Virus genome (UHGV): UHGV-1570564
Length of the DNA stretch: 24,254 nucleotides
Strand: one strand, 5' to 3'
Source of the DNA: a virus
Shown here: positions 1-24,254 of the stretch, piece after piece
How the letters are laid out: every line of letters starts with the position of its first letter
Position numbering within the stretch: position 1 is the first letter of the stretch
Translations under genes and position numbers: made by a program
The notes under the pieces: model-generated
Seen by the model: only the letters and a program-made list of their open reading frames with translations
What the model was told of the DNA's origin: nothing
Databases searched by the model: none

Positions 1-536
1 GTATCAACACGGTTCAGCAATACCCGATACTTTTTCCAGGCTTCCAGCAACGAGGTTTCTTCCTCCGTTGCAATTTCCAGATCTGCAGCATCCTGAAGCG
101 GCGCAATATGCTCACTGGCTACCTGCATCAGGTTGTTTTTTGTTTCTTCCGCCTCCCGGATCCGGAACAGTTTTTCTGCTTCCGTATCCTTCACCCAGGC
201 TGTGCCGTTCCACTTCTGAAACTCCCCTTCCGGCGATAACCAGGTAACATTTTCCGGTAACGGACCGAGTTCAGAAATAAATAACTCGTCCCCTGACGCT
301 ACGTCATAAACCGTTTTACCCCGATGGTCTTCAACGAGATGCCACGATGCCTCATCACTGTTGAAAACAGCCACAAAGCCAGCAGGAATATCTGGTGGTG
401 CAATATCGGTACTGTTTGCTGGCAGACCTGTATGAGGCGGAATATATGCGTAACCTTCACCAATAAATTCATTAGTTCCGGCCAGCAGATTATAAATTTT
501 TATGGTCCGTGCTTGTTCACTCATTCTGAATGCCAT
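1..536 (-). CDS. tfa: Tail fibre assembly protein (Tfa / gpG-like), 5' portion only; 3' end lies beyond the window start
   Basis: Minus-strand ORF with ATG at 536..534, open to position 1. Translation begins [54 protein letters not shown], which I recognise as the conserved N-terminus of enterobacterial prophage Tfa proteins. Start overlaps the tail fibre stop as TAATG. Confidence 0.8.
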
Positions 537-3433
537 TATGCAAGCCTCACAATATAATTAAATGCGATGTTTTTAACGGTGTTTTCCGCGTTACCAGCAG
601 CGTTAACGGTGATGGTGTGTCCATGTGAACCAATCGCAACGGAGTGCGTATGCGCACCAATACCTACAGTATGTGCATGTGCGCCAGAACTTGCTGCAGT
701 ACCAGACAGCGAGTGGGTATGAGCACCTGCTGACTGTGTCTGAATACGTTGATAATACGATCTATAGGAAGAAGTCTCCGGGCTTACTTGATACTGTGAA
801 TTCTGGACATAAGTGAACCCACCGCCATCATAAAATGCTAACGCAGAACCGCCGCCTCCTGGCCAACGAATACCATTACCATGAGTATGAACACCGGCAG
901 ACCCCGTAGAGCCACTCAGCCTGTGCGTATGCGCCCCGGTGTTATTCGTGGATTTAGTACCGTAATCAAACGACGATGTGGTTTTCGTACCCAAATCCGT
1001 ACTGGATGCGCTGGCACTGTGGGTGTGCGATTTAATGCCATCCTGTTCCTGAGACAATACGGCCCGACCACTGGCGGGTTTGCCCTTGATTGTCCAGCCG
1101 CGCATATCTGGAATAACACCAGAAGGATAGGCAATAGCCAGTTTCGGATATGCTGCCTTATCAAACGTCTGCCCCTGCATGATTGCATAACCTGCAGGTG
1201 GCGTATCTGATGGCCACGGCAGCGGAACACCTGGCGGAAACGCTTCAATATTTGCCGAGCCGTCAAATTTTACGCCGTTAATTGTCCTTGCCGTTTTCAG
1301 CTTTGTTGCTGTAGCAGCATTGCCGGATAGTTCGCCTGAAAGACCACCGCTGAATGTCTGTTTCGCCATCCATGTCTGAGCTTCGTCGATAATTGGCACA
1401 CGTCTTGTCGTAATCGTGCGGCTTCCCGGATTTCCTGAAATGCGAACCATAAAAAAGCGGTAATTCGCTTTACTTACAGTGCTGCGCCATACATGCATTG
1501 AGCGCCCCGTACCGGAATCATCACTCGGACCAACTGCGATGTTTATCAGGTTGCCATCAATGACGCCCCAGTCCATACCGTCGGGAATATTGGTCATATT
1601 ATCCAGCCGAACGGTTATCAGACTGCCCGGCACAAAATCGTAGGTCTGCCAGTCCAGGCTGGTGAGTTTTGCTACTGCGCCACCGATACCCAGATTCAGG
1701 GGAAGTGAATAAGATGTGTAAACTTCCCGCCATTCGCTCCATGAGCTGCCGGTAAAAACGCGCTCAAACGTGCGGCCTTTAAGGGTTGTACCTGTTCCGG
1801 CAGTTGTATAACGCTGCCATACATTAACACCATCAAACCGCCTCAACACTTCCAGAATGCCGAGTACAGTCACGCCGTTTCCGTCCAGTACTGGACCGTT
1901 GGTCGCTTTACCTGTAACGCTGTAAATACCTGGTGAGGTTACATCATTCAAATCACCTTCGTAATAACGACTCTCTGACTGATGACCGACTCTTAACCAC
2001 GGTTCCCACTGCGGATTTGATGCATCCCAGCTTGCCGCAAGACAGCGGACATACATATTTCCACGGCGAGTGGTATAACGTTGCGTTCTTCCATAATTTC
2101 CGCCTTCGAGGATCTCAAGCATCCCCTGAGCAAAGCCGCCTTCCTCTGGATAATTGCGTTCATATGAAGCTATAGCTGAGCTACTGTTACGCCATAAACC
2201 AAGATGCTCGGCGGCTCCAAGCGTATTCAGGTCTATAGTCGTACTCAAAGGGCGGGTAGCAGATTGAGTGTGACGCCATACGCCCCACGGACCATCAGTG
2301 CCATTCCACTTATTGGCGAGTTTACGCATGTATACATTGCCGTCTCTCGTGGTAAAGCGTTGCGTACCTGCAAAATGGCCGGCAGCAAAAACCTCAAGCA
2401 CACCGACAGCATTATCTTCCGGGAAATTTTTCTCCAGTGTTGCGTTGGTGGATGTTGCTTTAGACCAGATACCTGAATAAGCCTTAACAGGACCAAACGT
2501 ATTCAGATCAGCATCAAGCGGCATTTCGCCATTGTTTTTCATAAACGTCAGGCTGGTAACGCCAACATTGTCCAGAAAAGCTGATTTATCCTGGATATCT
2601 GCACCGTTCTGATTTTTCGCCAGACGTGAATTTGCGTTGTCATTTGCTGCCTTGACCGCTTTTGGCGTTGCCGCCTGCGTTTCAGACGTACTGTTAGTGG
2701 CACTACTGAGCTGAACTATCCCTTTTTGTGCCGTGGTGGCATTCTGGGCGGTATATTTTCCGTCAGCCAGGTCATATGCAGCCTTAACAGCCTTAGGCGT
2801 CGCTGCGAGCTTTTCAGACGTGCTATTGGTGGCATTACTGAGTTGAACAATGCCTTTTGATGTTAAAGTTGCATCAGGATGATTACGTGATTGCTCATGT
2901 TTTACAATAGCTTGCTTAAGCCGCTTTGCTGAAACAGCCAGGGAATCATCTGTACCTGCATCAATTTCTTGTTCATTAGCAAATCTTGCTACTCCAACAA
3001 CAGTTTCGGTTGCGGGAGGGTTAATAAACTCAACATCACCAAATGTAATGTTTTTAGTATCAAGATTTTTAATTGCTATATCACTTGATATTAAAGCAAT
3101 TGTAGAAGATACTTTATTTATTATTACTTGTTCTTGCGAGTATACAGCAAACAATGTTCCTTTATTTGTATACAAACCTATTGTATGGACAACATACTCA
3201 TCTTTACTATCATCCTTCGCAGTTACATGAATGGTATCAGGAGAAACGACTTTGCCTCCTATTGTGGTAAGTCGCTTTATTTCATCTGTTATTTTTGTTT
3301 GTGTGGTTGATGTGGCATAATATCTACTACCTAAACCAACAGAAACGATCTCAACTTTATTTGTTCCAGTCTTGTTGGCATTAACCAGCGCCTTACGCCC
3401 GGCGTCAGTCATCGTAAATAATAATTTACTCAC
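536..3433 (-). CDS. Tail fibre protein (965 aa), P2 gpH-like N-terminal anchor fused to a lambdoid Stf-like shaft and tip
   Basis: N-terminus [19 protein letters not shown] and the [10 protein letters not shown] motif followed by duplicated KGIVQLS(N/S)[17 protein letters not shown] repeats resemble P2 gpH. C-terminus has seven HxH motifs and ends [18 protein letters not shown], typical of enterobacterial side tail fibres. Sits after baseplate genes and before tfa. Confidence 0.85.
539..1021 (-). repeat. Coding repeats for the His-x-His rich C-terminal tip of the tail fibre
   Basis: Seven HTH/HAH/HGH motifs in the last ~160 aa; the corresponding DNA shows recurring gtgcgtatgcgc / gtgcatgtgcgc / gtgggtgtgcga type segments. 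Confidence 0.5.
2645..2857 (-). repeat. Two direct copies of a ~27-aa tail fibre repeat ([24 protein letters not shown]), about 130 nt apart
   Basis: Repeat copies at aa 193-219 and 237-263 of the tail fibre; the DNA copies are visibly similar (ttcagacgt(g/a)ct(a/g)tt(g/a)gtggca(t/c)tactgag(t/c)tgaac). Confidence 0.7.
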
Positions 3434-5479: not shown

Positions 5480-5943
5480 AATAATTTACCTAACGCACTT
5501 CTAGTTTTTGACTCTATATTGCCAGCAATATCAACTAATGCTTCTTTCAGAGAGGTCTGTCCGACTTCCTGTAATTTAATGCCGACGATAATCACTCGTG
5601 GATTCCCAGTTGGACCGAAATAAGTCCATGATTCCTCTATATCTGTAATTATAAAATTACCAAAATACTGAATACCAATTACAACAGGATTTACTTCCTG
5701 AATTGATTGCATTGTCCTAAGTAATGAAAGCGCAGCCAATGGAATAATGCCAAGTGTTGTATCCAACCGCATATTAAAACTAACTTCATCCAGATCTGGA
5801 CCTATATCCTCCAGAACAGGTTTAAGCCCAATAACATCATGGCGCGCTACACGACGCTTTGACGTCCTTTTAAAATTGTTGAACGTATTCACCACTATTG
5901 ATGAGGCAACAAAAGGCATTGTACCAAGCATACCCACAATCAT
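5476..5943 (-). CDS. Hypothetical protein (155 aa) inserted between spike V and W in the baseplate operon
   Basis: ORF translationally coupled on both sides (overlaps at 5940-5943 and 5476-5479); hydrophobic N-terminus MIVGMLGTMPFVASSIVV; no motif I can assign. Confidence 0.5.
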   Translation of the reverse strand: MIVGMLGTMPFVASSIVVNTFNNFKRTSKRRVARHDVIGLKPVLEDIGPDLDEVSFNMRLDTTLGIIPLAALSLLRTMQSIQEVNPVVIGIQYFGNFIITDIEESWTYFGPTGNPRVIIVGIKLQEVGQTSLKEALVDIAGNIESKTRSALGKLL

Positions 5944-6560
5944 GCCTGAGCCTCCGTTGTCGGAGCGTATTCCCCCTGAGCTGTGTGATGGTGGCCTTTA
6001 GATTTAATCCCATCAACATCTATATCACCACCAACAACCTTAACATTCCCAGAAATTGTAGCTGCAACACCTCCAGCAGAAGATCCTTTCATTCCACCTT
6101 TGAAGGTTAGTAATCCTTCAACTGTAGCATTTCCGGTAATGATGGTTTCTGGAGCATCAATAGTTACGGTTCCTGTAGCCTTAATGGTTACATCTCCGAC
6201 AGCATCAACAAGGAGTAAATTAGATTCTCTGTCTATCTCAATACGAGTTCCGTTATTAAATCTAATGACGCGTTTATTAACAGTATTAGATGGCGGCTTC
6301 TGTGTTTCATCATAAAAACTACCAAGAATAAAACCTTGTTGCGGCCCCGCGGGATGAAAGATACACAAAACTTGCTCACCAATATCTGGCATCCAGTAAT
6401 CAGCATTCTTATCTGTATTTTTCACAATAACTGATAACTTTGCCGAAGTGACGTTATCCTGATCATCGAAAGTAACTCTTGCTGTAACATCACCATCATC
6501 AATATCAGAAACAACGCCAACTCTTATAGTCTGACGTAATAATGTTTCTAAATCATTCAT
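5940..6560 (-). CDS. Baseplate spike / assembly protein V (gp5-like, 206 aa)
   Basis: N-terminal OB-fold-like region followed by a Gly/Val/Thr-rich beta-repeat stretch (VGDVTIKATGTVTIDAPETIITGNATVEG...ISGNVKVVGGDIDVDG) typical of phage central spikes; position after the gpD-like hub. Confidence 0.7.
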   Translation of the reverse strand: MNDLETLLRQTIRVGVVSDIDDGDVTARVTFDDQDNVTSAKLSVIVKNTDKNADYWMPDIGEQVLCIFHPAGPQQGFILGSFYDETQKPPSNTVNKRVIRFNNGTRIEIDRESNLLLVDAVGDVTIKATGTVTIDAPETIITGNATVEGLLTFKGGMKGSSAGGVAATISGNVKVVGGDIDVDGIKSKGHHHTAQGEYAPTTEAQA

Positions 6561-6562
6561 AA

Positions 6563-7564
6563 TTAATACCCATTAATTACTCTTCGGACATCAATCGAGG
6601 TGGTATAACCACTAGTCCCAATTGAATGCACAGCTTTCGATATAAGATATTTTCCAGAAAATGAACCGAATCCCTCCAGATTTATAGTTACACCAGCTAC
6701 CAATCTGGTGTCTCCAACCAATACTAAAGATCCGGTATTTTGATATCTATTTTTAAGCCGCAAAGCAGCCTTTGCCTTACGTTTTGCTTCATCTAAATTA
6801 GCTACCAGTTTTCTTATCTTAAGATTCGACCCTTCTTCTACGGATGGATCTACCCAAGTATACGAAAGCGACTTTCTTTTTTTAGGTACGCGATATTTGC
6901 ACGTGCAACTTTTATACAAATCTGTAGATTGTGTGCTAAAGCTATATCTGATTATCTCATCAATACCTAACGTAAGCGTAGCGATAGGATCTTTTTGCTC
7001 AAACATCTCTTGAGCAAATATTATTAATTGGCTATCAGTGACCTTTAACGACAACCCTTCATCCTGGCAAAGTCGATGGAGAAATTTTAAATCGCTTTCC
7101 TCCATTTGATCTTCACGCGCATAATATGGATTACTATCACCATCAATAAGAAACAACAGTTCAAGGTTAGCTAATTTAGCTATAGAAGTTGCTATATCTT
7201 TAAGAGTTGTTTTTTCCCATGCATTACTTTTTAAATCACGTCTAATGCCTGATGAAACAGGAACAGAAACAGCAGTTACCTCAACCACAGAAGGTGGTCC
7301 AGAGCAAGTTATGCCATCTACCTGGAATTTCCCGCACTCAAGGACGATTTGATTTATAGGCTTAAAGCTCAAATCAATAAAATCACCCTTTTTAGGTGTC
7401 CAGTCTCCAGACCATTTCCCATCATCATTTTTTAATATAATAGAAATATCATCGACCTGACCATCTTCATTATCTGTATAAGACATTGACAAAACATCAG
7501 GTGACATATGAGCGGTAATATTTACATTCTGATATATAACATCAAAAAGCGTTTTACGTAACAC
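6563..7564 (-). CDS. gpD-like tail protein / baseplate hub (333 aa)
   Basis: Size and position after tape measure and the LysM gpX-like gene, as in P2 (T-X/U-D) and Mu (gp44). Confidence 0.65.
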   Translation of the reverse strand: MLRKTLFDVIYQNVNITAHMSPDVLSMSYTDNEDGQVDDISIILKNDDGKWSGDWTPKKGDFIDLSFKPINQIVLECGKFQVDGITCSGPPSVVEVTAVSVPVSSGIRRDLKSNAWEKTTLKDIATSIAKLANLELLFLIDGDSNPYYAREDQMEESDLKFLHRLCQDEGLSLKVTDSQLIIFAQEMFEQKDPIATLTLGIDEIIRYSFSTQSTDLYKSCTCKYRVPKKRKSLSYTWVDPSVEEGSNLKIRKLVANLDEAKRKAKAALRLKNRYQNTGSLVLVGDTRLVAGVTINLEGFGSFSGKYLISKAVHSIGTSGYTTSIDVRRVINGY

Positions 7565-7772
7565 TATTGCGTCTCCACGGAGGAAAATTGTTTACTGATA
7601 TTGGCATAACCGGAGCATCAGGAACTTTAAGAATAATTCCCGCAGAAAAAAGCACCGTAAAGCGGTGCTCAGTATTAGCATCAATAAGAAGATAAGACAG
7701 GTACTCATTACCATACAACTTTAAAGCGATACTATCCCATGAGTCCCCTTGAACCGTTCTATAATCATCCAA
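7554..7772 (-). CDS. LysM-domain tail protein, P2 gpX-like (72 aa)
   Basis: YRTVQGDSWDSIALKLYGNEY...ILKVPD matches the LysM pattern; small size and position directly after the tape measure gene. Confidence 0.65.
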   Translation of the reverse strand: MDDYRTVQGDSWDSIALKLYGNEYLSYLLIDANTEHRFTVLFSAGIILKVPDAPVMPISVNNFPPWRRNSVT

Positions 7773-10557
7773 AACTTAATCTCCGTTGTTGGAACATATG
7801 AGCACTCAATTTCTTCTCAAAATCAGAATATCCCGCATCTAATGCTCTTTTAGCTGCCGCCTCAGTTTCCTTTGGTGAACCAGCCGGAAGATTGATTACA
7901 GGTGAATAGGTTATTCCACCAGTCACAGCGTTAACGTTCTGGCGAGGTCCAGAAGTCCCGGCGGCAGATATCCCGTGAGGTGATAAATTTGATTGCCCGA
8001 ACTTGCTTGCTATTGCATTCTGTAAGCTGTTATTCCTGCTAACACCTGATGCCAGAGTAGTCATTATTGCACCACCTGACTTTGTTAGCTGTGAGAATGG
8101 ACCTTTTTTCGCGTCAGAGAACGGTAAATACTCACGTACAGAAGAAAAAACGCCTTTCACTTCATTAATTAAAGCATTTGCTTTTGATTTTATCCCAGTG
8201 ATTAACGTCTCAATTATTTTTGCGCCTGACTCACTCCAGTTTATTCCAGATAAATAAGTCGTTACAGATTGGAATGCTCTTATAAAGAGTCCAACTGGTG
8301 AAAAACGCATAAAAACAGATACCAGTGTATCTATGATTTTCTTTCCTGTTTCGCTCCAGTTAATGCCAGAAAGGTAATTTGTTGTAATTTTAAATGCTTT
8401 AATTAAGAACGGAAGCGGAGACATCCATTTAAAAGCACTAATTAATGTACTGTAAATTCTTACACCTGCCGAACTCCAGTTTATGTTGGAAAGATAATCC
8501 CATGCTTTACCAAACATAGATATAATCCATCCATTGAGGTCAAAGTTTAAGATAAAGTTTTTTATAGCCTCAAATGATTTAACTGTATATTCCTTAACAG
8601 AAGGCCAAACTCTGACAGCATAATCTCTGATCTTATCCCAATTCTGATAGAGCAATATTCCTGCGGCAACCAGCGCAGATATAGCCATCTGAATCCACCC
8701 GAAGGGTGTTAGCTTTGTCGCTACAGATAAAGCCAGCATAGCTACCCTACACGCTATAACCACACTTTTCATGGTTAGAAACGCACCTGCCGCCATCACT
8801 ATCTGAGACACAAAATTGGGGTTGTTAGCTACAAATTCACTAATTTTTGTAATCAGCGGAACCAAAACACTAAGCGCGGCATTCAAAGCAGGTTGCAAGG
8901 CCTGACCAAAACTTAATGATGCATTGCTAGCCTGAATACGTAATTGTTTCAATCGCTCCGCATTATCTTTCGTTATGTTGGCAAAATCGCGGTCAATAAC
9001 AGCACTTCCAGCTCCAAGAGATGTTGCTTTGATTCTCTGGTATTCCTTCCAGTTTTGAATCATCGGACGAACAAAGTTCTGAACCTGCATATCGCCAAAT
9101 AGTTCACCAAGTAACTTCTGATCTCCGTTCTTAGTCATTTTCATGACAGAATGCATTGCAGCTTCGAATGGATTCTTCCCTTTTTTCTGCGCTGTTGTAA
9201 CAATTTTATATAAATCTACACCGAAATTTTTCTTTGCTTTTTTTAGTGTTTCAGGGGAAAGTATTTTTGCCAAAAAGTTGTTCATATTATTAGCAGCCTC
9301 ATCCGAAGTTGCAGCCCCCTTGCGAGCTATCTGCAAAGCTGCACCCATCGTCGCGGCTGCTTCTTTACCTCCCATTTTTAATGCCTGGAACTGAGCACCA
9401 AGCACAGGAAGATTTTTGGCCATATCTTTAAATTCAAAGTTCCCCTCTTTCCCTGCCTGAACCAGAATCCCCATTGCAGACTTCATTTGAGATGGATCAA
9501 TCTTCAATGAGTCACTTAATGTAAATGATGCTTTCGAGACATCGAGGATATCAGAGCCAGTAGCTGTAGCTGTTCGCCCAATAGTTAGTAGATTCGCCTG
9601 AGCCTCTTTATAATCCTGCCCAGCAGCGACGAGAAAACCCTGAGCGGCCTGAATATCAGATGCAAACTGGTTGGTAGCCGTTCCGGTAACAAGCATCGCC
9701 TGCCCCATCGCCTGAACTTCTTCCGGCTTCATATCTGCCGTAAGACCAATCATTTTGTTTTCACGATTGAAATTTGCTGCATTGTTAGCAGCAGCAAATG
9801 CACCAGCCGCTACAGCACCAGTTTGTAATCCTGACCTTACAAGTTGACTCTTTGCCTCACCAAGATGCTCTCGCTTCAATTCACGCTGCCTTTCCAACGC
9901 GCGGTTTAACTCCTCCTGAGCACGTTTTACTGCAAGAACATTTTTCCGTGCTTCAGCCAACGCATTTTTATAGCTGTTAATTTTATCAATACGTTGTTTT
10001 TCTAATGCCCGGTTAAGTTCCTCCTGCTGTTTTTTCACTTGCTGAACATTTGCTCTGGCTAAAGCCAAAGCCGTTCTGTAGCGGTTAACCTGCTCAACGC
10101 TACGGGCCTGAGCCTCACGATTACGATCAATGCTGGCTTTAAGCTCTTTCTCTCTTGAGGCCAAAGCTCTGGCAGATGTATCAGCTCCCTGATAGGCAGA
10201 CTTTAAAGCGGCCAGTTCTTCACGCTGAGAACGTAGTGATGCTCGTAAATTCGATGAATGTGTTTTTGCCTTCTCAAAGTCACGAAGCATCGCTCTGGTT
10301 GGATTGGCCGTGTTTTTTATTTGCTTCTGTAACTCTTCAACGCGAGCGGCAGCTTTATGATATTCGAGGGCAGTCTGTCCAACCTTTACTTTTACAGATT
10401 GTAGCTTTTGAATTTCCCCATGTTCTTTCGTTAATCCAGCAAGCTCGGCATTTAATTTAGCAACAGCCTGATTAGCTGTAGTAAAACTTTTGGGGAGAGA
10501 GGCGGCAACTTTGCCGCCAATTTCAAAAGCCAGCTTAAAGTTCTTATTGCTGGCCAT
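7765..10557 (-). CDS. Tail tape measure protein (930 aa)
   Basis: Largest tail ORF, downstream of the chaperone pair; N-terminal coiled-coil repeats, central Ala/Gly-rich region, hydrophobic segments and C-terminal tandem repeats. Confidence 0.85.
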   Translation of the reverse strand: MASNKNFKLAFEIGGKVAASLPKSFTTANQAVAKLNAELAGLTKEHGEIQKLQSVKVKVGQTALEYHKAAARVEELQKQIKNTANPTRAMLRDFEKAKTHSSNLRASLRSQREELAALKSAYQGADTSARALASREKELKASIDRNREAQARSVEQVNRYRTALALARANVQQVKKQQEELNRALEKQRIDKINSYKNALAEARKNVLAVKRAQEELNRALERQRELKREHLGEAKSQLVRSGLQTGAVAAGAFAAANNAANFNRENKMIGLTADMKPEEVQAMGQAMLVTGTATNQFASDIQAAQGFLVAAGQDYKEAQANLLTIGRTATATGSDILDVSKASFTLSDSLKIDPSQMKSAMGILVQAGKEGNFEFKDMAKNLPVLGAQFQALKMGGKEAAATMGAALQIARKGAATSDEAANNMNNFLAKILSPETLKKAKKNFGVDLYKIVTTAQKKGKNPFEAAMHSVMKMTKNGDQKLLGELFGDMQVQNFVRPMIQNWKEYQRIKATSLGAGSAVIDRDFANITKDNAERLKQLRIQASNASLSFGQALQPALNAALSVLVPLITKISEFVANNPNFVSQIVMAAGAFLTMKSVVIACRVAMLALSVATKLTPFGWIQMAISALVAAGILLYQNWDKIRDYAVRVWPSVKEYTVKSFEAIKNFILNFDLNGWIISMFGKAWDYLSNINWSSAGVRIYSTLISAFKWMSPLPFLIKAFKITTNYLSGINWSETGKKIIDTLVSVFMRFSPVGLFIRAFQSVTTYLSGINWSESGAKIIETLITGIKSKANALINEVKGVFSSVREYLPFSDAKKGPFSQLTKSGGAIMTTLASGVSRNNSLQNAIASKFGQSNLSPHGISAAGTSGPRQNVNAVTGGITYSPVINLPAGSPKETEAAAKRALDAGYSDFEKKLSAHMFQQRRLSFG
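8158..8508 (-). repeat. Three tandem degenerate ~40-aa repeats in the tape measure C-terminal region (YLSGINWSE(T/S)G.KII(D/E)TL...)
   Basis: Protein-level repeats at about aa 684-800, mirrored in the DNA (cactccagtttattccagataaataagtcgttac / gctccagttaatgccagaaaggtaatttgttgt / gaactccagtttatgttggaaagataatccc). Confidence 0.55.
9880..10077 (-). repeat. Duplicated coiled-coil unit in the tape measure N-terminal region (..KKQQEELNRALEKQR.. / ..KRAQEELNRALERQR..)
   Basis: Two similar ~30-aa units at aa 161-226; the DNA shows the matching duplicated stretch (gttaa(c/g)t(c/t)cctcctg...). Confidence 0.5.
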
Positions 10558-18849: not shown

Positions 18850-20706
18850 CTATATGGTTACGCCTTTACTTATAACTCTACGGCGTCTTCTACGTATACC
18901 TGACGAGTTCTGCACATACACATTACCTCGCATTTCCTGTTCGGCAAGCCAGTTAAAATTAGGGTTCAGAATTTCCATCGCGGCAGTTGCATAGTTACGG
19001 CAATCAAGAGGCTCGTTACGCTCGTAGACTTTCACCCACTTTTCTTTTGTCTGCCCATTTTTATATTCAAATATTTTTTTCTCTGATAATAATCCTTTAA
19101 AGTATTCGGTATCATATCCTCTGTCAGAATCTAATGGGAAATGCATATAACCAGGACCAGGATCATGTAGTTTAATTCTTGCCATGATGGTCCCTTTACC
19201 ATCATCAACCCCCAAATTAAACAACATAGCACCCACACGGTTATTATTACTTGGCTTTCCTATAAATGGTAAACCTACCCCACCACGCCCCCTGATAGAG
19301 TATATTCGCCTTGATTCTCTCGGCTTAGTAAAGCGATATACCTCTGTCGTAAAATGCCCACCAGAGTCAATACAAACGGAAGAAATCTGTAATTTTCGAC
19401 CGTCACGGAATGACCAGCTACGGAGTAAGTATTCATCAAGTTGTTTCCAGACAACATCTTGTGCGGGATCACCTGGGAATATTTTATATTCTATCCCCCA
19501 TGACTCCTTACCTTTTCCCCAACCGACCAATTCACAAACTAAATACGTGTCCTGTACGTCAACACCAGCACTTAACAATAAAACATCATCTGGTAAAAAC
19601 TCTTCAAACCTTATTCTGCGTTGCAACAAGTATTCAGGATCGATATCGTCTTTAGCATCCTCTTTCCATGGCTCACCCAGCTTAAGGTTAATAAACTCCA
19701 TTAATCCATTTTTATCGCGGTTTCTGGTTGCTTCCGTAAATTCTTCAACCAGCTCTGACAATGCAACCCACGGGGAGTAAAGACTGTTAATATGAAAACC
19801 AACAATACCTTTAACTCCAGTATGTTCAGCTATCCATACCCCCTTCGCCAACCAATCAACGTCTGGTTTACCAGATCCGCGCATAATCCCGCCGCACTCA
19901 CAGCACTCATATCTGGCCGTTTCCGGTAACGCCTCACCTGAATCGCTCTTATCCCATCTGACTTGCGACCATTTCATCACCTGCATGGTGCCACAACATG
20001 GGCAAGGAACATGGTAGTAACGCTGATCGGAGAGCTTAAACCACTTGTGGATTTTGCTTGTTTCCTCCAAAACAGGAGTAGAAACAAAAACTTTCTTACG
20101 ATTATGAAAGTTGGTAGTACGCTGAATACCTAGTTTTAGTGGGTCGCCCTCCTGCGTCACACCGTAACGATCAATCTCATCAGCTAACAGTATTCGAATT
20201 GGCCTGGATGCAAGACCTGCTGGGGAATTAGCACCAACAAGTGCTATATATCCACCAGCGTAATGCTTCATACGTATAGTCGTGCTGGACTTTTTGGCTG
20301 CACCGCGCCCCTCTTTCCCTTCATGCAGCTTGTGTTTCAAACCAGGGGAATATTTGAACGTCGGATCAATACGCTCTTTTGAAAAAGCCTCAGCCGCCTC
20401 TACCGTTGGATAAATCATCAACTGAGGAGATGGCTCCTGATCTGCAAAGTAACCCATAACATTTAGCTGTAATTCGGATTTACCAATTTGCGAGCTACAT
20501 TGCATCACTACTGTTTCTGTATCAGCGTCACCAATAACATCCATTGGTTCACGCAAATATGGCACTCGGCTTGTACGCCACGGCCCTGGCTCTGGAGACG
20601 TTCCCGGCGCTACATGACGATACTTATCAGCCCATTCGGAAACAGTTAGCCGTGATTTAGGGCGAAGCGCACGGAAAAAAGCGGTGCTCCATACTGTTTC
20701 GCCCAT
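18850..20706 (-). CDS. Terminase large subunit, lambda GpA type (618 aa)
   Basis: Size and N-terminus (..RLTVSEWADKYR..) consistent with GpA-family terminases; followed by gpW-like and lambda-family portal genes. Confidence 0.85.
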   Translation of the reverse strand: MGETVWSTAFFRALRPKSRLTVSEWADKYRHVAPGTSPEPGPWRTSRVPYLREPMDVIGDADTETVVMQCSSQIGKSELQLNVMGYFADQEPSPQLMIYPTVEAAEAFSKERIDPTFKYSPGLKHKLHEGKEGRGAAKKSSTTIRMKHYAGGYIALVGANSPAGLASRPIRILLADEIDRYGVTQEGDPLKLGIQRTTNFHNRKKVFVSTPVLEETSKIHKWFKLSDQRYYHVPCPCCGTMQVMKWSQVRWDKSDSGEALPETARYECCECGGIMRGSGKPDVDWLAKGVWIAEHTGVKGIVGFHINSLYSPWVALSELVEEFTEATRNRDKNGLMEFINLKLGEPWKEDAKDDIDPEYLLQRRIRFEEFLPDDVLLLSAGVDVQDTYLVCELVGWGKGKESWGIEYKIFPGDPAQDVVWKQLDEYLLRSWSFRDGRKLQISSVCIDSGGHFTTEVYRFTKPRESRRIYSIRGRGGVGLPFIGKPSNNNRVGAMLFNLGVDDGKGTIMARIKLHDPGPGYMHFPLDSDRGYDTEYFKGLLSEKKIFEYKNGQTKEKWVKVYERNEPLDCRNYATAAMEILNPNFNWLAEQEMRGNVYVQNSSGIRRRRRRVISKGVTI

Positions 20707-20711
20707 GAGGT

Positions 20712-21263
20712 TTATTCTTCCTGCTTAATAAATCGGGATTCCTGGAGCGCCTGAAGCGCAAAATTAATCTCGTCTTCAATAATGCGCTCGATCTCCCTGG
20801 CTGTTTTGCCTTCACAACGGGGAGCTGCTCTTGGAGCAATACTAAATAAGCGGCTACGCAATTCATTAGCTGCCAGAAATGCATCATCCCTGACCGCATC
20901 TTTAGCGATGAGAGAGCCTTCCTTTTCTTCAAATTCAAGGCGTTTCAGCTTTGCCTGATAAATTTTTTCTGCGGTCTTAGCCTTGTTGAATTGCACCGCA
21001 ACACCGGAAGTACCACCAGCTAATCCGGCATCATCAGCGGGTAACTCTGGTTGTTCCGAAGATATCCCATGCCCTCTTTTTCCATTTTCAGCAGATACCT
21101 CACGACCAACCTGTCGGCTCGCTTCATAAGCCGCACTGGCTTTATCAAAATCCAGCTTGCCGCTTTTCAGCACTGGAATGCGACCGGAACGACAGAGCTT
21201 CGTAACCATTGCCGGAGAAATACCTTTCCGGCGGGCAAACTCTGACTTACTGACGATGGCCAT
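20712..21263 (-). CDS. Terminase small subunit, Nu1-like with N-terminal helix-turn-helix
   Basis: MAIVSKSEFARRKGISPAMVTKLCRSGRIPVLKSGK parallels the lambda Nu1 N-terminus. Preferred start is ATG 21263..21261, overlapping the ParB-like stop as TAATG; the ORF track start at 21272 is a TTG. Confidence 0.7.
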   Translation of the reverse strand: MAIVSKSEFARRKGISPAMVTKLCRSGRIPVLKSGKLDFDKASAAYEASRQVGREVSAENGKRGHGISSEQPELPADDAGLAGGTSGVAVQFNKAKTAEKIYQAKLKRLEFEEKEGSLIAKDAVRDDAFLAANELRSRLFSIAPRAAPRCEGKTAREIERIIEDEINFALQALQESRFIKQEE

Positions 21264-21853
21264 TACTTGCAACCATTAGCAAGATACTGAACAAATCCCT
21301 CATGCGTTTCATGCGCGTCGTGGTACTGACGATAAACATCCAGCAACAATGCAATTTCCATATCCGTCGCGGGAATACGTTCTTTATCAATAGCCAGGTA
21401 CTTAATTTGAACAACAGGGGAAGAATTATCGTCTTCTTCCTGCGGCTGTTCATCGCTTAACATTTCGTCAAGCTCTGCATCATTAAACCCAAGCAGATCA
21501 ATATCAAAATCATCATCCATTAACTCTTTGACTTCTTCGGCCAGAAGCTGCATATCCCAGCCAGCATTTAAGGCCAGCTTGTTATCTGCAATCCTGTAAG
21601 CCTTCTTCTGTTTTTCAGAAAGGTTACTCAACCGAATCGCCGGAACTTTATCCATTTCCAGAATTTCGGCTGCTGCAAGCCGCCCATGCCCCGCAATCAG
21701 TTCATTCTTTTCATCGATCAGCACAGGATTAGTGAAACCGAACTCACGGATACTGTTCACCAACTGTTCAACTTGCTCATCTGAATGAGTCCGTGAATTT
21801 TTGGCATATCTGAGCAACTTACCGACTGGTAAATATTCGATTTTTAGAGCCAT
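21263..21853 (-). CDS. ParB-like nuclease-domain (ParB/Srx fold) protein, standalone, 196 aa
   Basis: NSRTHSDEQVEQLVNSIREFGFTNPVLIDEKNELIAGHGRLAAAEILEMDKVPA matches the ParB N-terminal domain signature (..GHGRL.AA..); acidic C-terminal half; stop overlaps the small terminase start. Confidence 0.75.
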   Translation of the reverse strand: MALKIEYLPVGKLLRYAKNSRTHSDEQVEQLVNSIREFGFTNPVLIDEKNELIAGHGRLAAAEILEMDKVPAIRLSNLSEKQKKAYRIADNKLALNAGWDMQLLAEEVKELMDDDFDIDLLGFNDAELDEMLSDEQPQEEDDNSSPVVQIKYLAIDKERIPATDMEIALLLDVYRQYHDAHETHEGFVQYLANGCK

Positions 21854-22409
21854 TTTTTAACCGCCATAACACAACAGGTTAAAGAAAACTGTTTAACTTA
21901 TTGATACTAAAAGAGAAAAATGACGATCTTTTTACTCATAAAAAATCACACAAACCAGCATAATTATCTGATTTTATTAAGTTTTTATAAGTAAAAAGGA
22001 TCTTGCGATGGTGTTTTGGTTAAAAGATTGGATGTATTTGCATGATTTATAACGATTTTTATCAGAACAACATCACATTGGTTAAAGATCTGCGCGTATC
22101 TTGATGATCTAAAAGAAAATTTTCCACTTTCTTCTTACCAGCACAAATACAGAAAAAATCACGTTTTCCCGATATTTTTCAATGAGATGAGTAAATTTCT
22201 TTTACCGCAACTTTTAACCTAACTTTTTTCACGTTTAGCTAGCCGAATATCGGGGTTCGAATGACCCGCATCCAACGCTTTTGGCCAGAAGGACCCAATT
22301 CTGCCGGACGATGAAACGATGCTCGTGCTCCCCCACAGACAGCCAGCGAGCGACGCTACAGAACACAGTGAATACACCCTGCATAACAACACCATCAACC
22401 ACACGATGA
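21854..22409 (-). promoter_or_regulatory. AT-rich non-coding region upstream of the ParB-terminase-head-tail operon; candidate late promoter and/or packaging (cos) region
   Basis: About 550 bp with no convincing ORF. Repeated motifs: GGTTAAAGA-like at 21877-21885, 22018-22027, 22080-22088; AAAAAATCAC at 21940-21949 and 22153-22162; four GATC sites between 21925 and 22109. No specific -35/-10 pair could be assigned with confidence. Confidence 0.35.
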
Positions 22410-23129
22410 TTAACGAGAGAACGTCTTAGAAAGGATGTCATCAATAGCCTTTGTGACTTCATCAGCAAACGCATCCTCACCAGCACGCAGCGCCACGCCA
22501 TGCCAATCAAGACGCTGCGAATAGTTAGGTTGCTGGATGAACGTAAGGATCAACGTAGGACGCCGCCCAACGCGCTGCCAGACGCCTGGTTGAAGCGGGT
22601 TACTTGTACCAGGTCGAACAACAAAAAACTCCGTAGGCTTGCCCTGACGGCGATTTTGATGCGCATCTCGCTGAACTCTTAGGCCAGATAAGACCTGCTG
22701 TAATTGCCCCCGCGAAATATTCCCGTATTTGTCCAGCTTTGCGCCGGGACCAGGAGCAAGCTGCCAGCCGTTAGGCAAATATCCACCAGCCCTTAGCGCC
22801 CCTTCTGAGCGTTTGTACTGTCGTTGGCCGCCTTCGATTTGCGGAGTCAACGTTACAGGGGCTGGCGTTCCACCCCATTCACGAGCATACACAATGGCTG
22901 TAGGATCACTCTTCTTTGCGGCCAAAACGTAAGTAGAGTTCTGAATCCACGGCGTGGGCCTGTCAAATACCCGATTAATTTCATTCTTAATCGCAGCCTG
23001 AGAAGCCTTTGCCGTTCTGGTTGCCGCAAGCGCCATTGCGAACGGCAATTCGCGTTCTTCAAGGCGCTGGAGTTGTCGTTGAATATCCTGAGAAGAAAAA
23101 TCCATCTTTATCTCAATTCTGTCAGCCAC
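22410..23129 (-). CDS. Hypothetical protein (239 aa), Arg/Gln/Gly-rich, no cysteine; downstream partner of the methyltransferase-fold gene
   Basis: ORF with GTG start at 23129..23127 preceded by AGGAGG (23140..23135) at 5-nt spacing, 16 nt after the upstream gene's stop; no recognisable catalytic or structural motif. Confidence 0.5.
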   Translation of the reverse strand: MADRIEIKMDFSSQDIQRQLQRLEERELPFAMALAATRTAKASQAAIKNEINRVFDRPTPWIQNSTYVLAAKKSDPTAIVYAREWGGTPAPVTLTPQIEGGQRQYKRSEGALRAGGYLPNGWQLAPGPGAKLDKYGNISRGQLQQVLSGLRVQRDAHQNRRQGKPTEFFVVRPGTSNPLQPGVWQRVGRRPTLILTFIQQPNYSQRLDWHGVALRAGEDAFADEVTKAIDDILSKTFSR

Positions 23130-23145
23130 CAGCGCCTCCTACACA

Positions 23146-24219
23146 CTACTTAATCAACGGCCGGAAAGCCGCCAGCACATCATCAGATCGTCCGATTGTT
23201 GAACCACCAGGCAACGGCAACTCAAACTCAAAACGAACAGCTTTCTCCAGACTCGCCCAACTAAGGGAATCATCGTTAATGACGTGCAAATACCAGCTCT
23301 TACAGTTGAATATTGACCGCTTAATCCTGAAACCATGTACACGACACAACTGCTTCACTTCCTCATCAGAGTGAAACTTCTGGTAAAACCAGTGCCCCTT
23401 CCGGTACAACGCGGTAAAACCGTCATGATCAATAAAATAAAGCCGGCTTTTGGAACTCGCCGCTTGTGTTTGCTTCAGGACTGTTTCCAGTTCTCCACGG
23501 CTACGGCCAGAAAAGAATATTGACCCACCAGCTTTACACAGGCCTTTCAGAACCGTCAGAACGGACCATTCAGCCTCGACACTATCGACCGAGTTCAAAA
23601 CGCTATCGCAAATCACGTAGTCGTAACGCCCTCGCGTTTTTAAGTCGTCCACCAGCGTATCAATCATCCGGTTTGTTGCGGCCCTATCCAGAGTGTTTCC
23701 AGCGCCCTTACGGCGGAAAAGCTCGAGATCATGCAGGTTATATCCCTTTGCCCTGAGCATTCGCGCGTAGTCTCCCTGCCCCGAACCAAAATCAATTCCT
23801 CTTGGCGTCTTGGCAATGATCGGGAGGATCAACGACTCATACAGATTTGATTTCAGGCTGCCACCATTACGCAACCGCATAAGCTGCGCATACGTCTGGA
23901 TGTATGTTGTTTTCTCCAGATGAGAATACTCAAATACACCATAAGTTTTATTCAGATAACTTTGGTATTTTTCCTTCTCAACATCAGGGATCACAAACAC
24001 CGTTAGCGGTGTGCGCGTCATTTTCGCTGCTAATGCATACTGAGCACAGTGAATAACCTCACCAGACTGAGTAGCAACACAACCACCCCACGGACCATAC
24101 TTGATAACCAGTTCCGCTATGTTCTTTCGAACATATGCCATTTTCGCGCGCATATTGCCTGAGATCTGGCTTGCCGATACCTGAACAAAACCATGCTTAT
24201 GAAGCAATACATTCAACAT
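23146..24219 (-). CDS. Class I SAM-dependent methyltransferase-fold protein with ~135-aa N-terminal extension (357 aa); substrate unknown
   Basis: Motif I-like GIDFGSGQGDYARML, acidic residue in ..GYNLHDLELF.., and YDYVICDSVL / GGSIFFSG segments typical of Rossmann-fold methyltransferases. No (D/N/S)PP(Y/F/W) or PCQ/ENV motifs of canonical DNA methyltransferases. Confidence 0.6.
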   Translation of the reverse strand: MLNVLLHKHGFVQVSASQISGNMRAKMAYVRKNIAELVIKYGPWGGCVATQSGEVIHCAQYALAAKMTRTPLTVFVIPDVEKEKYQSYLNKTYGVFEYSHLEKTTYIQTYAQLMRLRNGGSLKSNLYESLILPIIAKTPRGIDFGSGQGDYARMLRAKGYNLHDLELFRRKGAGNTLDRAATNRMIDTLVDDLKTRGRYDYVICDSVLNSVDSVEAEWSVLTVLKGLCKAGGSIFFSGRSRGELETVLKQTQAASSKSRLYFIDHDGFTALYRKGHWFYQKFHSDEEVKQLCRVHGFRIKRSIFNCKSWYLHVINDDSLSWASLEKAVRFEFELPLPGGSTIGRSDDVLAAFRPLIK

Positions 24220-24254
24220 CAGCGTGGCTGATCACCTTTCGGGCTTTTCAAGCC

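Follow-up and report, generated by a model that had tools for sequence, protein, structure and literature searches.

Two neighbouring genes on the minus strand of a phage-derived sequence raise the question of whether they form one functional unit. The stretch of DNA analysed here (the window, 24,254 nt) had been described in a first-pass annotation, which took the two genes for a GC-rich accessory cassette made of a methyltransferase-fold protein and a partner of no known type. The genes are called A and B below, in the order of transcription, and their coordinates and those of the neighbouring features are listed in Table 1. With a probability of roughly 70%, genes A and B are two functionally unrelated late genes, namely, a truncated ParB-methyltransferase fusion (gene A) and a gpZ-like tail completion gene (gene B).

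Table 1. Features of the window around genes A and B
Feature	Position	Strand	Details
Gene A, open reading frame	23146-24219	minus	357 aa; ATG start at 24219
3' part of ParB_N + Methyltransf_23 fusion gene	23146-24200	minus	codons ~105-457; middle and class I SAM methyltransferase domains kept
IS200/IS605-family tnpA fragment	24197-24254	plus	last ~35 nt of tnpA and downstream hairpin
Spacer between genes A and B	23130-23145	minus	16 nt; holds AGGAGG (23140-23135), ribosome-binding site of gene B, as read from the sequence
Gene B	22410-23129	minus	239 aa; GTG start; followed by the AT-rich gap and then the packaging genes
AT-rich noncoding gap	21854-22409		556 nt; 36.9% GC; between gene B and the ParB-TerS-TerL genes
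Stand-alone ParB/Srx-fold protein	21263-21853	minus	196 aa; PF02195, E 3.8e-8; phrog_620, E 4.6e-75
terS	20712-21272	minus	phrog_57, terminase small subunit
terL, GpA type	18850-20706	minus	PF05876 and PF20454

The arrangement of the two genes was as first described. Both open reading frames are co-oriented, and the TAG stop of gene A (23148-23146), the AGGAGG motif and the GTG start of gene B (23129-23127) were read directly on either side of and within the spacer. The 720-nt coding sequence of gene B is annotated identically in relatives. Cotranscription, which had been regarded as almost certain, is plausible to probable. The minus strand has no terminator-like site between or inside the genes, the sole terminator-like site of a consensus scan being on the opposite strand, and the scan found no promoter-like site in the gene region.

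The GC enrichment of the region was present but smaller than the claimed 50 to 55%. At 49.3%, the GC content of the region exceeds that of the window (42.6%) and that of the adjacent gap (36.9%), and only 6.7% of equally long (1810-nt) segments reached it. The overall GC contents of TerS (48%) and of a tail fibre gene (47%) are near that of the two genes. The codon composition of both genes did differ from that of the head and tail genes, in agreement with the first description: GC3 was 0.47 for gene B and 0.52 for gene A, while the head, tail and terminase genes ranged from 0.28 to 0.40. The shared higher GC3 suggests that the late-region block with genes A and B has another history than the head and tail genes, which would be ordinary phage mosaicism.

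The source of the window is an element of ~48 kb found in E. coli and Yersinia. Positions 138 to 24200 share 98 to 99% identity with Escherichia phage vB_EcoM-613R2, and Yersinia phages vB_YpM_39, vB_YpM_41 and vB_YpM_44 are largely identical to the window. A 555-nt query from the methyltransferase gene matched around 150 complete E. coli records, nearly all of them plasmids of 47 to 50 kb and one of them in ATCC 25922, indicating that the element is a phage-plasmid. Its head is lambda-like, with a GpA terminase, a ClpP-type protease and gpD-like and gpE-like proteins, and its tail is contractile (myovirus), with a tube protein and baseplate proteins identified. Experiments would be easy to set up, since this phage-plasmid is frequent among clinical E. 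coli and the reference strain ATCC 25922 carries it. The left end of the window (1-2714) is mosaic. Bases 1 to 200 have 99% identity to the tail fibre assembly genes of lambdoid phages, and bases 1278 to 2714 encode the C-terminal part of a 965-aa tail fibre with ~93% identity to the tail fibre gene of phage P2. The GC content of the latter segment (~50%) is above that of the rest of the tail module.

The complete plasmid NZ_CP032259 gives the gene order of the intact element. In the direction of transcription, two holin genes, a GH108 lysin gene, tRNA-Ile, an MT-A70 methylase gene and four small genes are followed by the genes for a ParB protein (207 aa), the ParB_N-methyltransferase (457 aa) and the gene B product (239 aa). 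A gap of ~560 nt then separates gene B from the genes for another ParB protein (196 aa), TerS, TerL, DUF6148 and the portal protein. Three ParB/Srx-fold proteins are encoded in a row around gene B in the phage-plasmid (207 aa, the 457-aa fusion and 196 aa; positions 7199-7822 and 5826-7199 of relative L085 for the first two), and the MT-A70 methylase is encoded further upstream of them. The 196-aa ParB gene overlaps the start of terS by 10 nt (TTG start at 21272), which suggests that it is translationally coupled with the small terminase.

Neither protein had been thought to look structural. For gene B, the evidence from its family points the other way. The full length of gene B was matched by phrog_1924, annotated as "minor tail protein" (E 2.5e-97). 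The homologues retrieved with tblastn came from Pseudomonas phages F10, MD8, LESphi2/3 and JBD68 and from Ralstonia, Sinorhizobium and roseophages, and they are annotated as "minor tail protein," "minor tail protein Z" or "tail completion protein"; the MD8 phage paper does not mention the homologue. The gene B protein alone had no match in Pfam (E ≤ 1), NCBIfam, PADLOC or PDB sequences (E ≤ 10), and NCBIfam gave no usable match for either protein. Among 45 members of the gene B family, 10 matched PF06763 (Minor_tail_Z), with a best E value of 1.3e-4. When the family was aligned with lambda gpZ by hhalign, a collinear N-terminal match was obtained with a probability of 50% and an E value of 1.6e-4.

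The AF2 model of the gene B product, built with 45 homologues, was confident (pLDDT 87.8). It consists of a 42-residue N-terminal helix (residues 13-54), a beta-rich middle and a 30-residue C-terminal helix (residues 209-238), and this layout agrees with the tail completion fold, in which a long bent N-terminal helix is followed by a loop or beta region and a long C-terminal helix. The best structural match of the model was gp51 of phage 80alpha (PDB 9mu2, chain P; 109 residues). [quoted passage not shown] By analogy with 80alpha gp51, the gene B product would be present as a single copy in the neck lumen, and its apical domain would cap the DNA end, yielding an infectious particle.

On the predicted fold and the weak profile signals, and with the gene position speaking against it, a tail completion protein of the gpZ type is the preferred reading of gene B, which would count among the late-operon genes for morphogenesis and packaging. 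Neither of the two neck-region proteins compared with it (114 aa and 161 aa) showed any similarity, and the phage may have no other tail completion protein. On sequence and fold evidence, this reading would place PHROG 1924, which is encoded last before cos, among the tail completion proteins of the gpZ type.

The genomic position of gene B was surveyed at 80 IMG/VR loci with homologues of 33 to 44% identity; the counts refer to the loci that could be evaluated for each feature. In 57 of 63 loci, a GpA-type terL on the same strand started within 2.5 kb downstream of gene B; usually, terS lay between the two and the portal gene beyond. In the window, gene B is likewise syntenic with the terS-terL packaging module (18850-21272). 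The upstream neighbours varied and included holins (11/77 loci), replication proteins, N6_N4 methylases (3 loci), Q and Rz. In records such as those of phages F10, MD8, JBD68, R4C and RcRhea, the homologue of gene B closes the record, immediately ahead of cos and terS; F10, MD8 and JBD68 are cos-type relatives with linear records. In the window and at these 57 loci, gene B precedes terS-terL and is not located between the genes for head-tail joining and those for the tail terminator or the major tail protein. The records of vB_YpM_39, vB_YpM_41 and vB_YpM_44 start and end in the gap downstream of gene B, at ~22254 to 22266. This gap, which holds several short inverted repeats, is probably the cos or genome-end region.

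The main rival reading of gene B follows from this position. Instead of being a virion tail completion protein, the gene B product could be a packaging accessory with a gp10-like fold that acts at cos or with the terminase, for example by binding the right DNA end or aiding cos cleavage. Tail completion genes are not typically found where gene B lies, directly upstream of terS and a GpA-type terL and at the end of cos-type linear genomes. Such a place would suit a packaging role, and HNH endonucleases are similarly placed by the cos and terminase genes of other phages (PMC3592412). The closest structural match, however, is a bona fide tail completion protein, the family includes Minor_tail_Z matches in Pfam, and the profile searches found no nuclease or DNA-binding family for gene B. 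The packaging accessory is thus an unlikely alternative; since gpZ itself has been proposed to bind a DNA end, the two readings also overlap in part.

In this lineage and in distant relatives, gene B is found at the far end of the late region, before cos and terS, and not within the tail module. The relocation of a gpZ-like gene to the side of cos might point to a tail completion protein able to recognize the specific cos end.

The neighbourhoods also bear on a role of gene B in lysis, as a novel endolysin or a spanin-like protein. Holin families are encoded directly upstream of gene B in the 11 loci mentioned above, and in a distant siphovirus-like relative (L003, 9666-10744), the homologue of gene B shares a 4-nt overlap with the stop of a Phage_holin_3_5 gene and is followed by terS, bridging the lysis and packaging blocks. 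This candidate was rejected as extremely improbable: the element has its own holin/GH108 cassette, and the fold of gene B is that of a tail completion protein.

Gene A has the methyltransferase fold attributed to it. A class I SAM methyltransferase domain with a GxGxG SAM-binding motif is present at the C terminus, PF13489 (Methyltransf_23) was matched with an E value of 6.8e-8, and structure comparison agreed. The gene is not intact, as had been assumed. Its homology to the 457-aa gene of all relatives ends at position 24200, at residue ~105, where the DNA homology to every relative breaks. Accordingly placed are the match to phrog_5475 (E 2.4e-199), which covers profile positions 106 to 457 of 458, and the BLASTP alignment, in which gene A residues 5 to 357 correspond to residues 105 to 457 of the 457-aa vB_EcoM-613R2 protein with 98% identity. 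The ParB_N domain (PF02195), present in the 457-aa relatives, was absent from the gene A open reading frame in the Pfam search.

DNA unrelated to the phage gene provides the first ~6 codons of gene A, including the ATG at 24219. The final ~55 nt of the window have 98.3% identity to the 3' ends of IS200/IS605 tnpA genes on IncI2 and other plasmids. Since the ATG lies in this IS200/IS605-matching DNA beyond the homology break, 24219 is not the native start. The first match for the window end had been the "major intergenic region" of the filamentous phage If1, which also contains ~51 nt of it; a filamentous-phage origin was superseded by the better-supported match to tnpA 3' ends. The join to the phage gene falls within the tnpA coding region and not at an IS terminus, suggesting that the terminal segment is an IS remnant, a mini-element, or the result of an adjacent deletion or of a join made in assembly. 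Searches of IMG/VR, the GTDB representative genomes and complete E. coli genomes gave no second instance of the methyltransferase/IS junction. With ~55 nt seen past this point, the truncation might instead reflect a misassembly at a repeat.

As it stands, gene A would be the remnant of a fusion of a ParB-CTPase fold with a class I SAM methyltransferase, cut at about codon 105 by IS200/IS605-derived DNA. With its ParB domain lost or separated, it is probably a nonfunctional pseudogene. No stand-alone ParB gene is present upstream of gene A in the window, its expected position being beyond the IS junction and outside the window; the same position holds a stand-alone ParB in three relatives (L001, L002 and L085).

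The proposal that genes A and B are a functional pair was then confronted with the neighbourhoods of both families, that of the methyltransferase having been surveyed at 78 IMG/VR loci, again counted as evaluable loci. Of 74 gene B loci, 2 had a methyltransferase gene directly upstream; of 76 methyltransferase loci, 5 had gene B directly downstream, all of them close relatives. The conserved partners differ: gene B is accompanied by terS, terL and the portal gene, and the methyltransferase gene is accompanied by a stand-alone ParB gene. These results do not uphold the functional pair. A two-gene accessory cassette for DNA or RNA modification, defence or counter-defence, acquired together, would account for the 16-nt spacing, the shared raised GC3 and the adjacency of the genes in all close relatives, down to ~69% identity (L086-L091), and the methyltransferase fold that it calls for is real. 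Against it, linkage is absent outside one lineage, each gene has a different conserved partner, the fold of gene B is structural, and only gene B is intact here, gene A being truncated. This cassette is very improbable.

The interpretation as moron or defence cargo was not borne out either. In PADLOC, gene B had no match, and only the ParB domain of the methyltransferase was recognized, as MTase_II, along with a chance-level match to Csx1 (E 0.017). Of the features expected of a moron, a deviating composition was found. No promoter-like or terminator-like sites bound the genes, the methyltransferase segment is present in the ~150 related E. coli records, and distant phages retain gene B together with the packaging module. 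The pair had also been said to match no system known to the annotator; gene A belongs to the PHROG 5475 fusion family and gene B to the PHROG 1924 minor tail family. With a structural gene and a broken gene in its place, the locus holds no defence or counter-defence candidate, and a false lead is removed.

The full-length relatives of gene A (PHROG 5475) are 457 aa long, with PF02195 (ParB_N) followed by PF13489 (Methyltransf_23). The combination of a ParB-CTPase fold with Methyltransf_23 has been described as a phage-enriched architecture (Kaljevic et al. 2025; PMC12704722). The fusion family is large and strongly conserved, with 45 to 89% identity from Enterobacterales to Bradyrhizobium. The motif "RFNQLHNGTD" and the SAM motif I "IDFGSGQGDY" are (nearly) invariant in the family, and the ParB box "AGHQRT" is invariant. 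The AF2 model of the full-length fusion was confident (pLDDT 93), and the nearest structures of its methyltransferase domain were small-molecule and tRNA methyltransferases. No profile or structural match to the catalytic domain of a DNA methyltransferase (N6_N4 PF01555, Dam or C5) was found. In the model, residues ~105 to 200 (equivalent to window positions 23600 to 23900) repeat the strand-helix pattern of the N-terminal ParB fold (residues 1-90). This hints at a second, degenerate ParB/Srx-like domain between the ParB and methyltransferase domains; hhalign detected no sequence similarity between residues 105 to 200 and the N-terminal ParB domain.

A stand-alone ParB gene was directly upstream of the fusion gene in 62 of 65 evaluable loci. 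A GpA-type TerL was encoded within 3 kb downstream in 16 of 57 loci, and in most other loci the largest downstream open reading frame encoded Terminase_6, TerL_ATPase/nuclease, Terminase_3 or a portal protein. What is conserved is therefore the pair of ParB and ParB_N-methyltransferase ahead of the packaging genes; the terminase genes that directly follow it represent at least four families. Phage ParB homologues are known to activate a neighbouring DNA-modifying dioxygenase on double-stranded DNA (PMC13229309). Late in infection, the intact pair would most likely methylate nucleic acid of the phage, the ParB folds serving as an NTP-dependent module that targets the methyltransferase to DNA or activates it. 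It is possible, although rather doubtful, that ParB and the ParB_N-SAM methyltransferase, which is of a non-DNA type, constitute a packaging-coupled nucleic-acid modification system with a noncanonical chemistry or an unusual target; the ParB folds would then serve to load the enzyme onto DNA or to activate it there. Only a disrupted copy is present in the window, which is a poor place to study this pair. The combination of a ParB partner and a prepackaging context in very different phages is useful for testing the function of the family.

Compared with the known tail completion proteins, the gene B product is long, with 239 aa versus 192 for lambda gpZ (PF06763) and 109 for 80alpha gp51. Its gene is located just before cos and terS, whereas the genes of the HK97 gp10/SPP1 gp16.1 class lie between the head-tail joining and tail terminator genes. 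The gene B protein alone remains below every Pfam threshold.

The full-length relatives of gene A have exactly the architecture of the fusion described by Kaljevic et al. (PMC12704722), whereas the copy in the window is without the ParB domain. The ParB_N + N6_N4 fusions (PHROG 498; PADLOC MTase_II, PDLC03229) are similar in that their N-terminal ParB part is matched by the stand-alone ParB proteins of the element; they differ in the catalytic domain, which in the present family is not PF01555. In the ParB-dependent phage thymine dioxygenases (5mYOX with a ParB activator; PMC13229309), a stand-alone phage ParB is likewise encoded beside a nucleic-acid-modifying enzyme, and terminase genes often occur in the same contigs. 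The 5mYOX enzyme is an Fe/2OG dioxygenase, in contrast to the SAM methyltransferase found here, which carries its own ParB domain. By this comparison, 5mYOX with its ParB would be the closest functional analogy to the pair of ParB and ParB-methyltransferase.
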